Shown piece after piece: positions 42,311 through 43,572 of a DNA stretch of 64,000 nt. Position 1 is the stretch's first letter; the number at the start of each line of letters is the position of its first letter. The position numbers and the translations under genes were made by a program. Under the pieces are notes generated by a model. That model did no database searches. It was not told the DNA's origin and was given only the letters and a program-made list of their open reading frames with translations. The stretch is from positions 5,739 through 69,738 of the forward strand of contig CAYFPI010000002.1 of assembly GCA_964344985.1 (NCBI GenBank), written 5' to 3'. The DNA is from an uncultured Candidatus Thioglobus sp. (lineage in GTDB: Bacteria > Pseudomonadota > Gammaproteobacteria > PS1 > Pseudothioglobaceae).

Positions 42311-43063
42311 ATGTTTGTAAAAAATAGTTTATTTGTTATTTTTTTATTTTTCCTTAGTGTATCTAGTGCTAAAGAGCTAGTAACTATTGAACTTCCATCT
42401 GGTGATGAAACAGAAATTAGAGTTTTTCCCGCTAAAGGAAACACGCTTATTGTTGGCTTTGCTTGTGATAATGGAAAAAGCAAACACGAAGAAGCAACTG
42501 CACAAAGCTTAGCGGATGACGGCATAGAGGTTTGGATGCCTGACATGCTAAGCACTTACATGCTACCAAAATCTCGCAGTAGCTACGGTGAAATTCCAGG
42601 AGAGGATTTAGCGCAAATTATCTACGAAGCAATCTCTACTAAAAAAGATGTTTATATTGTTGGCTCAGGGCCTGACACACAATTAATACTTAGTGCTGCT
42701 GCACAATGGAAAAAGTCTTTTCCAGACTATCAAGACTTAAAAGGGGCGATTTTACTTTTTCCACGCCTTAACGATGGAGAGCCTGTACCTGGTGTAGAGC
42801 CAAAATATGTAGAGCCTGTTGGCACAACCACAATTCCACTTATGGTGCTAGAAGGCGGACGCACTCCTAACCGCTGGGGCCTTAACCACCTAAGTGATAA
42901 ACTAAGTGCCGGTGGTAGTAAGGTTATATCAAAAGTTGTGCCAGATATTCGTGGTTACTTCTTTAAGCGTGCCGACCCAAATAGAACCGAAGATGTCGTC
43001 ACTTCGCAATTATCCGGACTAATCAAAGTTAGTCTTTTTTATCTAAAGGAATCTTCAAAATGA
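42311..43063 (+). CDS. secreted protein of unknown family (N-domain homolog of the 53316..54560 fusion)
   Basis: 250 aa with the signal peptide MFVKNSLFVIFLFFLSVSSA. It is colinear with residues ~19-230 of the fusion protein. One matching pair is DDGIEVWMPDMLSTYMLPKSRSS against SGYDVWALDLHSSYMVPKHRSS. Confidence 0.7.
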   Translation: MFVKNSLFVIFLFFLSVSSAKELVTIELPSGDETEIRVFPAKGNTLIVGFACDNGKSKHEEATAQSLADDGIEVWMPDMLSTYMLPKSRSSYGEIPGEDLAQIIYEAISTKKDVYIVGSGPDTQLILSAAAQWKKSFPDYQDLKGAILLFPRLNDGEPVPGVEPKYVEPVGTTTIPLMVLEGGRTPNRWGLNHLSDKLSAGGSKVISKVVPDIRGYFFKRADPNRTEDVVTSQLSGLIKVSLFYLKESSK

Positions 43064-43572
43064 TAAATATCAAAAAAATATTAACACTACTACTATTAGC
43101 ACTTTCACTATCTGTAGGTGCTGCACACCTTAAGCCTTATAAAGGGTCAATCAAAAGCCCAACGGTTAACTTGCAGGATTTAAATGACAATACCCACACA
43201 TTAGAACAATACAAAGGCAAAGTAGTGTTGGTACAATTTTGGGCAACTTATTGTCCACCTTGCGTTAAAGAAATGCCTAGCATGAATAAATTACAAGACA
43301 AACTCTCTACAGCAGGTGTGCCTTTTAAAATTCTAGCCATTGATATGGCTGAAACCAAAGCAGAAGTAAGTGCATTTGTAGAAAAAATCAAGCCAGAATT
43401 TACCATTCTAATGGATGAAACTGGCTCCAGTATTGGTCAGTGGAATGTGTTTGCCGCACCTTCAAACTTTATCATCAACAAACAAGGTGAAATTGCTTAT
43501 ACCTTGTTTGGTGGCGTTGAGTGGGACTCGCAAGAGATTGTTAATAAAATCACTGAATTATCTAAACAGTAG
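43060..43572 (+). CDS. periplasmic TlpA-like thiol:disulfide oxidoreductase (copy 2), coupled to 42311..43063
   Basis: 170 aa with its own signal peptide and [13 protein letters not shown]. It has a 4-nt ATGA overlap with the upstream gene. Confidence 0.8.
   Translation: [170 protein letters not shown]

Follow-up and report, generated by a model that had tools for sequence, protein, structure and literature searches.

Within the window analysed here, a stretch of 64,000 nucleotides (nt) of contig CAYFPI010000002.1 from an uncultured Candidatus Thioglobus sp. (assembly GCA_964344985.1), the same pair of protein domains is encoded twice: once as two overlapping genes, termed A and B in the following, and once, 10 kb away, as a single fused gene, termed F. 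The C-terminal half of the pair (B, or the C-terminal domain of F) can be assigned to the TlpA/ResA-type thioredoxins, and the N-terminal half (A, or the N-terminal domain of F; hereafter the N-domain) can be placed, by structure prediction, in the α/β-hydrolase fold superfamily, although none of the residues expected of a catalytic member of that fold is conserved in it. On balance, we favour a reading of both copies as a self-contained periplasmic redox module, in which a TlpA-type reductase would be partnered with a dead α/β-hydrolase domain that offers a conserved binding face to a substrate or partner. TlpA-type reductases of the cell envelope are well known, whereas the obligate pseudo-hydrolase partner domain appears to be new and its association with them seems not to have been described. 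The features that carry this reading are the following, with lengths in amino acids (aa) and with the program-made list of open reading frames (ORFs) and AlphaFold2 (AF2) models among the sources.

42311..43063, + strand: gene A, 250 aa, a secreted α/β-hydrolase-like protein (ORF list, AF2 model, Foldseek).
43060..43572, + strand: gene B, 170 aa, a secreted protein with a TlpA/ResA-type thioredoxin fold and the motif WATYCPPC (ORF list, Pfam, NCBIfam, PDB).
43060..43063, + strand: the ATGA overlap, 4 nt, of the stop codon of A and the start codon of B (nucleotide sequence).
43252..43263, + strand: active site of B, C65-P-P-C68, with E71 and P73 after it and the cis-Pro loop at P134.
53316..54560, − strand: gene F, the fused paralogue, 414 aa, with the motif WASWCKPC; it comprises a signal peptide, an α/β-hydrolase-like part (~18-246), a linker (~247-283) and a TlpA-like part (~284-414) (AF2, BLASTP, Pfam).
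53613..53624, − strand: active site of F, C313-K-P-C316.

Architecture of the split and fused copies

The first-pass annotation of this DNA, made from the letters alone, had located all three ORFs correctly, leaving only the strand of F (minus) unsaid, and had matched five segments of A and B to F by eye. This colinearity is borne out by alignment statistics: BLASTP aligns A with residues 4-222 of F at 32% identity (E=1e-34) and B with residues 264-413 at 36% identity (E=1e-36), the break between the halves falls at F residues ~247-283, and all five segments lie within the two alignments. With an E-value of 1e-34, the N-domains of A and F are thus significantly similar. At the junction of the split copy, aaaATGAtaaat, the stop and start codons overlap in the 4-nt ATGA, as had also been noted, and this overlap may be taken as a sign of translational coupling. 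When judged by eye, A, B and F each begin with a signal peptide (approximately residues 1-20 in A), recognisable from a basic N-terminus, a hydrophobic core and small-residue cleavage sites (SSA↓KE, GAA↓HL and IFA↓SE), and no lipobox Cys is seen in any of the three; in the structure models, these regions are N-terminal helices with a lower predicted local distance difference test score (pLDDT).

The thioredoxin half is matched by the Pfam families AhpC-TSA, Redoxin and Thioredoxin_8, with E-values of 1e-12 to 1e-23. Its CxxC region reads CPPCVKEMP in B and CKPCVKEIP in F (C-x-x-C-x-x-E-x-P, with a Trp before the CxxC), and C313, C316, E319, P321 and the cis-Pro P380 (F numbering) are invariant among 80 fused sequences. 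The best NCBIfam families are ResA, StoA, TlpA and DsbE, and every score stays under the equivalog cut-off (102.8 against 170 for ResA, 63.8 against 230 for TlpA, 58.1 against 123 for DsbE), so that the thioredoxin half would not be an orthologue of any characterised protein. The PDB sequences nearest to B are 3kcm, 3hdc, ResA and TlpA, and in Foldseek the model of F matches 3kcm and ResA with template modelling (TM) scores, relative to the target, of 0.85-0.92, and TlpA with 0.7 (E 1e-11 to 1e-14), a match that takes in the extra N-terminal hairpin and the central insert of the TlpA/ResA/DsbE family. By their sequence, B and the C-terminal domain of F are therefore reductase-type periplasmic thioredoxins and members of that group. 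They share with the characterised TlpA, ResA and CcmG proteins (DsbE; cd02966-type) the signature W-x-x-x-C-x-x-C-x-x-E-x-P, the cis-Pro loop and an export signal, but, unlike these, they are tied to an α/β-hydrolase-like domain and are not encoded together with ccm/ccs, sco or cox genes.

In pairwise comparison, B scores 108 bits against the thioredoxin domain of F and 62 bits against a third TlpA-like gene of the window, which argues that the two-part module was duplicated as a unit, rather than a thioredoxin having been recruited twice. This third gene (15571..16095, + strand) encodes a secreted TlpA/ResA-like thioredoxin of 174 aa with a CPPC motif and stands alone between GST-like and radical-SAM genes. 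A role of B as a general reductase of cytochrome c maturation was also considered and is not favoured, since B has no ccm/ccs genes beside it and the window contains another TlpA-like gene.

The N-domain had been described as unrecognised in the first-pass annotation, a description that stands for sequence families and falls for the fold. Against Pfam and NCBIfam no family was found for A, the top matches being DUF7075 (E=0.025) and wecG (E=0.065), both noise, and searches of the PDB sequences, run with the single sequence and with a profile, gave MCM3 and RNase H2 (E ~1), likewise noise. The AF2 model of A, built on 25 homologues (pLDDT 85, predicted TM score (pTM) 0.83), nevertheless has the strand and helix order of a canonical α/β hydrolase, b1-b2-b3-aA-b4-aB-b5-aC-b6-(aD)-b7-aE-b8-aF, and the model of F has the same order. 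When the model of A was compared with the PDB, Foldseek found 904 matches at E<=1e-3, and the 50 listed are all α/β hydrolases (monoglyceride lipases, esterases, dienelactone hydrolases and the CIB-like hydrolase 3bdi, among others), with E~1e-9, TM 0.5-0.66 and 12-18% identity. F itself matches Pfam Hydrolase_4 weakly, at E=0.0065 and under the cut-off, and similarly weak matches (E<=0.01; the best one to Hydrolase_4 or an Abhydrolase family at 1.5e-6) occur among 118 diverse representatives of the family, 74 fused and 44 split N-domains: Hydrolase_4 in 6, Abhydrolase_6 in 5, Abhydrolase_3 in 2, and Abhydrolase_1 and Cutinase in 1 each. On the basis of these models, the N-domain can be placed in the α/β-hydrolase fold superfamily, in agreement with the α/β fold at which the earlier reading had hinted.

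That reading had singled out a Ser-Gly pair after a hydrophobic strand, and in the model of A this pair occupies exactly the nucleophile-elbow position (strand 113-119, helix 120-136). The elbow Ser is kept in both copies of the window, as S119 in A and S117 in F. Across the family, the elbow residue is Ser in 27-31%, Ala in ~25% and, in split forms, Gly in 18%; the residues flanking it are not canonical, and the Sm-x-Nu-x-Sm pattern is lost. Moreover, among the 118 representatives there is no conserved His after b8, no conserved acid after b6/b7 and no conserved Cys anywhere, the post-b8 loop reading R-D/G-x-F-x-x-R and the post-b7 loop Q-P-x-x-S-P. The absence of a conserved His/Asp triad and of a conserved Cys had been rightly noted for A and F, and many N-domains contain no Cys at all (69/74 fused forms, counted after the signal peptide, and 26/44 split forms).

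The residues that are conserved throughout the family are all located at the sheet's C-terminal edge, i.e. on the old active-site face. In A numbering they are W49, P51 and G55 (after b3), W75 and D78 (after b4), S90 and S91, A123 and L127 (after the elbow), G145, P151, P158 and G161 (after b6), Q181, P182, S185 and W189 (after b7), and R214, F217 and R220 (after b8). The N-domain is accordingly read, from its predicted structure, as a putative pseudo-hydrolase that keeps a conserved binding face: it retains the strand and helix order of the superfamily, but differs from α/β hydrolases in lacking a conserved nucleophile, His and acid, in being periplasmic and in being obligately coupled to a thioredoxin. 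Non-catalytic members of this fold include the neuroligins, NDRG and CIB-like proteins. On the same face, further polar residues are conserved clade by clade: C52, D53, S119, E181, R184 and N187 in the clade of A, and S49, E50, R51, H77 (100%), S88, R119, H150 (91%), T184, K185 and R188 in the clade of F, where S117 and H216 reach 82% and 73%, respectively. At the putative binding site, the two paralogues appear to have diverged, in keeping with different specificities.

As for the relative placement of the two domains, the AF2 model of F (pLDDT 94.4, pTM 0.91, only the linker 247-283 being weaker) suggests a fixed arrangement. No solved two-domain analogue of F is found among its 50 listed Foldseek matches, all of which are to the thioredoxin domain.

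Fusion, adjacency and descent of the module

When 1.84 billion representatives (clusters at 50% identity) were searched exhaustively with a profile, the N-domain family came to 397 clusters at E<=1e-3. Among the best 150 of these 397, 78 are full-length fusions (>=380 aa) with a TlpA-like domain, the active site of fused members being mostly CPPC; 3 more are shorter and show a partial thioredoxin match (81/150 in all), and in 55, the short forms, the thioredoxin domain is missing. The genomic context of the unfused forms was obtained from a scan of 185,579 species genomes, the search patterns of which were biased to the clade of A and which returned 80 loci. A TlpA-like (B-like) gene directly follows the unfused gene in 76 of the 77 loci with enough downstream DNA, and in the single exception both genes are frameshifted. 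The commonest junction is a 4-nt overlap (33/76 loci), and 13 loci have a 1-nt overlap. Besides the clade of A, whose members carry the motif GF[AP]CD (the GFxCD subgroup; GFACD around Cys52 in A) or WFACN at the corresponding place, there is a second, independent split clade with the ancestral WLPSE motif instead of GFxCD. There, too, the two genes are adjacent and their stop and start codons overlap; the genes around them are different ones.

The first-pass annotation had regarded the coexistence of a split and a fused form as Rosetta-stone evidence, and this reading is supported well beyond the window by the counts of fusion and adjacency and by the second split clade. From gene order and fusion we infer that the two parts act jointly in the periplasm. 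When all flanking ORFs in 83 loci were clustered, only the A/B/F cluster and the gene for a c4-like cytochrome, discussed below, were broadly recurrent. A consistent third partner was sought among the other recurrent clusters, which turned out to be antisense ORFs, likely spurious, or lineage-specific synteny (GcvP, LexA, a CitMHS transporter and HTS). In one metagenome-assembled genome (locus L065, 5998..7293), the A-like and the B-like gene are each split into two ORFs, reflecting either a pseudogenised module or a sequencing error.

Many genomes carry both a split and a fused copy. The distance between the two is 10 kb in the window, 600 nt in locus L046, and 0.9-2.4 kb in the loci L068-L079, where the copies are on opposite strands and separated by lexA. 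Seven of the loci L068-L079, all of the WFACN subgroup (L068, L069, L070, L073, L074, L077 and L079), have a fused F-like paralogue of 418-430 aa upstream of, and divergent from, A-B; the gap is filled by a family of 200-aa ORFs, which the example of L073 identifies as lexA. In a neighbour-joining (NJ) tree of the N-domains, the midpoint root falls in the fused forms, roughly 10 changes between the fused and the split state are required, and two large split clades stand out, with 15 and 19 representatives, the first of which includes A. Since the root lies within the fused forms and the split forms occupy derived clades, the fusion is probably ancestral and the A-B pair probably a product of fission.

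The 80 loci of the scan all belong to Gammaproteobacteria: Thioglobus/SUP05, Thiodubiliella, the symbionts of Bathymodiolus and Solemya, the Olavius Gamma 3 symbiont, Thiotrichaceae, Cocleimonas, Achromatium, Granulosicoccaceae, Thiohalobacteraceae and Methylophaga. Indeed, every credibly named source of the family is gammaproteobacterial, and most are sulfur oxidisers and symbionts. The symbionts of vesicomyids and of Bathymodiolus, with their small genomes, have orthologues of F as well, as does Ca. Ruthia, and it can be argued from this retention that the module matters to the cell. A fused homologue labelled as the cyanobacterium Kaarinaea lacus (L086; GCA_975852575.1, contig CDLCYU010000082.1) sits on a 6-kb contig whose gene order matches that of a metagenome contig (L087): ThiC, F, an AAA ATPase, a DCC1-like thiol oxidoreductase and an HTTM (vitamin-K-carboxylase-like) gene. 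Because so short a contig shares its neighbourhood with a metagenome contig, contamination in a non-axenic culture is its probable source. On both contigs, the DCC1-like and HTTM genes, which are on the opposite strand, have a thiol/quinone-redox flavour.

Database entries call the split form a "hypothetical protein", and fused members go under the name "TlpA family protein disulfide reductase". Our literature searches on a TlpA plus α/β-hydrolase-fold architecture found no published link, and those on Thioglobus with TlpA, or on SUP05 with thioredoxin and c4, found nothing relevant. The possibility, raised at the outset, that the N-domain might turn out to be a well-characterised family with a known link to TlpA-type thioredoxins therefore finds no backing, as no curated family was matched either.

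Proposed function and competing explanations

In the reading that we favour, A and B would be the two halves of the module and F its older, still-fused paralogue. The C-terminal part (B, or F 284-414) would act as a TlpA/ResA-type thiol-disulfide reductase, presumably recharged by a membrane transporter of the DsbD/CcdA type, from which electrons would flow towards the client. The N-domain (A, or F 18-246), having lost its Ser-His-Asp machinery, would use the old active-site face to recruit or position a substrate or partner, i.e. it would work as a specificity adaptor in physical contact with the reductase. It cannot itself be the thiol client in most members, since most N-domains are without Cys. 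Fission of the fused gene would then have given the split pair, the thioredoxin half gaining its own signal peptide while translational coupling was kept, and in the clade of the window the acquisition of Cys52 and of a cytochrome c4 neighbour could have added a clade-specific job, either making or maintaining c4 or exchanging electrons with it.

The closest parallels come from TlpA-like reductases that are fused to, or encoded beside, the protein they serve. TlpA reduces PprX in Caulobacter (ScsB to TlpA to PprX), and fusions of TlpA to methionine sulfoxide reductase (Msr) exist (PMC3322552). The Neisseria PilB protein (Trx-MsrA-MsrB) and the ScsB-TlpA-PprX system follow the same logic, with fused and split forms across genomes; in both, however, the partner is a known thiol-dependent enzyme (Msr or a peroxiredoxin), whereas here most members of the partner family lack a conserved Cys, and no catalytic site can be recognised in the partner. 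For the clade of the window only, in which A is secreted, has one conserved Cys (C52) and is encoded alongside a dedicated reductase, a further analogy can be drawn with DsbG and DsbC, which protect single-cysteine periplasmic proteins. This analogy is limited in that B is a monomeric reductase of the TlpA type, unlike the dimeric DsbC/G type, and it fails for the Cys-free majority of the family.

Periplasmic TlpA-type reductases are known from cytochrome c maturation and copper-site assembly, and as partners of methionine sulfoxide reductases and peroxiredoxins; with each dedicated partner newly found for them, a further reductive pathway in an oxidising compartment has come to light. Bacteria that carry the present module include the marine sulfur oxidisers SUP05/Thioglobus, which are ecologically dominant, and clam and mussel symbionts with reduced genomes. 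Finding the ligand of the dead-hydrolase face would define a new class of clients for envelope thiol-redox systems, and would also give a first functional annotation to proteins now labelled "hypothetical" or "TlpA family". In addition, the presence in one genome of a split copy, with its gained Cys and its c4 neighbour, and of a fused copy offers a natural comparison for the study of gene fission and subfunctionalisation.

Several points weigh against this reading. The interaction of the two parts and the adaptor role of the N-domain are deduced from sequence and predicted structure, and no DsbD/CcdA gene or consistent third partner is present in the module flanks examined. The arrangement of the domains in F was judged from pLDDT and pTM, which do not give the orientation of the CxxC relative to the pseudo-active site. 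The polar residues that are conserved within particular clades mean that some of these clades could still be enzymes rather than mere adaptors. The NJ tree from which fission was deduced is rough, being built on divergent sequences with a midpoint root and possibly including fragmentary metagenomic gene calls. Finally, c4 is absent next to the module in the WFACN subgroup (0/12), in the second split clade and in all fused forms seen, and a link confined to one subgroup cannot explain the family as a whole.

Among the competing explanations, one that deserves to be taken seriously, although we consider it unlikely, is that in the split clade of the window A is itself the redox client, with Cys52 as a reactive residue (catalytic, a sulfenate or persulfide carrier, or regulatory) that is reduced or recycled by B. 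Cys52 is present in 76/78 orthologues of A, including a subgroup at 31-43% identity, even though it was not part of the scan's search patterns, and the corresponding residue is Ser in 72% of the fused forms; the models suggest that the clade of A has gained this Cys beside the former oxyanion loop. It lies three residues past strand b3 in the model of A, and in canonical α/β hydrolases the position just past b3 is near the elbow. The service of a TlpA to a dedicated client is also not without precedent (PMC3322552). For the family, however, this explanation fails, because the Cys-free N-domains (the 69 fused and 26 split forms given above) are as tightly coupled to thioredoxin as the others, and within the clade itself Phe takes the place of Cys52 in the two remaining orthologues.

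A second explanation, which we regard as quite unlikely, centres on the neighbouring cytochrome gene.

41654..42253, − strand: a dihaem cytochrome c4-like gene, divergent from A, with the haem-binding motifs CASCH and CIGCH (Pfam Cytochrom_C in two stretches).
42254..42310: the divergent intergenic region of 57 nt between the c4-like gene and A.

According to this view, A-B would be a dedicated maturation or repair system for the adjoining c4, in which B reduces the CXXCH cysteines of the apocytochrome, a task performed elsewhere by ResA, CcsX and CcmG, and A holds the apoprotein or haem. The gene, whose PDB matches are the cytochromes c4 6q2u and 1etp, had been pointed out in the first-pass annotation as the divergent neighbour of A at a distance of 57 nt; this is accurate for the window, and the neighbour recurs in 52/57 loci of the GFxCD subgroup amid otherwise varying and unconserved surroundings, but it is not a family-wide feature. 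In further support, B is most like ResA-type reductases, and it need not be a general reductase, given the other stand-alone TlpA-like gene of the window (15571..16095). Against it stand the absence of c4 from the WFACN subgroup, the second split clade and the fused forms, and the fact that divergent adjacency may reflect shared regulation only. To our knowledge, moreover, no known cytochrome c maturation system needs an α/β-hydrolase-like factor. A single promoter-like site was found at the 57-nt region, on the minus strand (42321..42292), in a scan of the A-B locus for promoters and terminators in which such sites were no commoner than in shuffled sequence.

The c4 gene of the window differs from its 99%-identical copy in L001, and from all other aligned orthologues, by an in-frame deletion of 24 nt at ~41995/41996. 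This deletion is flanked by a CCA direct repeat. With the PTMYPFSD that it takes out, the gene product loses the Met of the NPTM motif, a motif otherwise invariant, whose Met is expected to be the axial ligand of haem 1 (cf. NSNPDM in domain 2). It is either a strain variant or an assembly artefact.

A bolder proposal, decidedly unlikely in our estimate, is that the N-domain has become a new thiol- or metal-based periplasmic catalyst on the dead hydrolase scaffold, recycled by its own TlpA-type reductase, with the pocket refitted in each clade (Cys52 in the split clade of the window, a His77/His150 site in the fused clade) and with the split clade wired to c4. If true, it would mean a new periplasmic redox enzyme in sulfur-oxidising Gammaproteobacteria and their symbionts, for instance one acting on peroxide, persulfide or polysulfide. 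Improbable, too, is that the N-domain remains an active esterase, lipase or thioesterase with non-canonical, clade-specific residues, which the thioredoxin regulates or with which it shares a substrate. S119 of A and S117 of F at the elbow, H77, H150 and H216 in the clade of F, and the weak Hydrolase_4 and Abhydrolase matches of a few members speak for such an activity; on the other hand, the elbow Ser is found in only ~30% of the family, neither its flanking pattern nor the His after b8 nor the acid after b6/b7 is kept, and the conservation of S117 and H216 within the clade of F is too low for catalytic residues. Lastly, that fusion and adjacency are merely synteny inherited in one lineage, without functional meaning, is very improbable indeed: all credibly named sources do fall into the one class Gammaproteobacteria, so that shared ancestry adds to the conservation, but the pair persists while all surrounding genes change, about half of the family (among the best 150 representatives) is covalently fused, the overlap of stop and start codon has survived in at least two separate split clades, and the fused model reaches a pTM of 0.91.

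Genes around the fused copy

On the minus strand, F is embedded among genes with which it overlaps on both sides.

54560..54838, − strand: a small ORF (82-92 aa in its family), cytoplasmic-looking and without a signal peptide, whose stop codon overlaps the start codon of F (TAATG).
52135..53319, − strand: a gene of the HI0933-like/aminoacetone-oxidase family of flavin adenine dinucleotide (FAD) enzymes, whose TTG start codon overlaps the stop codon of F by 4 nt.

Together with dapB and a YCII gene, the small ORF, F and the flavoprotein gene look like one operon, judging from their arrangement, and the same order is found in the locus of the Isorropodon symbiont (L083). The small ORF matches no family in Pfam or NCBIfam and carries the motifs GYxLDPHP, KRxRVP and LYAAKVxGPxRSSEG; its homologues in L083 (6753..7001, 79% identity) and L085 (6750..6998, 52%) each come immediately before an F orthologue. 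As a general partner of F it was rejected, being confined to the window, L083 and L085 and absent beside the F-like genes of L068-L079 and L084. Likewise, the flavoprotein gene accompanies F only within the SUP05 lineage, where it also occurs in L083, and is not found in L084-L087. The neighbours of F vary by lineage, with ThiC, AAA, DCC1-like and HTTM genes in one and ICMT-like and DUF3754 genes in another. Beyond the flavoprotein gene, a ParE-toxin-like ORF (51493..51825, − strand; in L001, an identical contig, the match is to Pfam ParE_toxin) and small ORFs up to ~52100 separate it from a pair of DUF4395 and metallo-β-lactamase-fold genes (49920..51453), a layout that may represent a toxin-antitoxin insertion.

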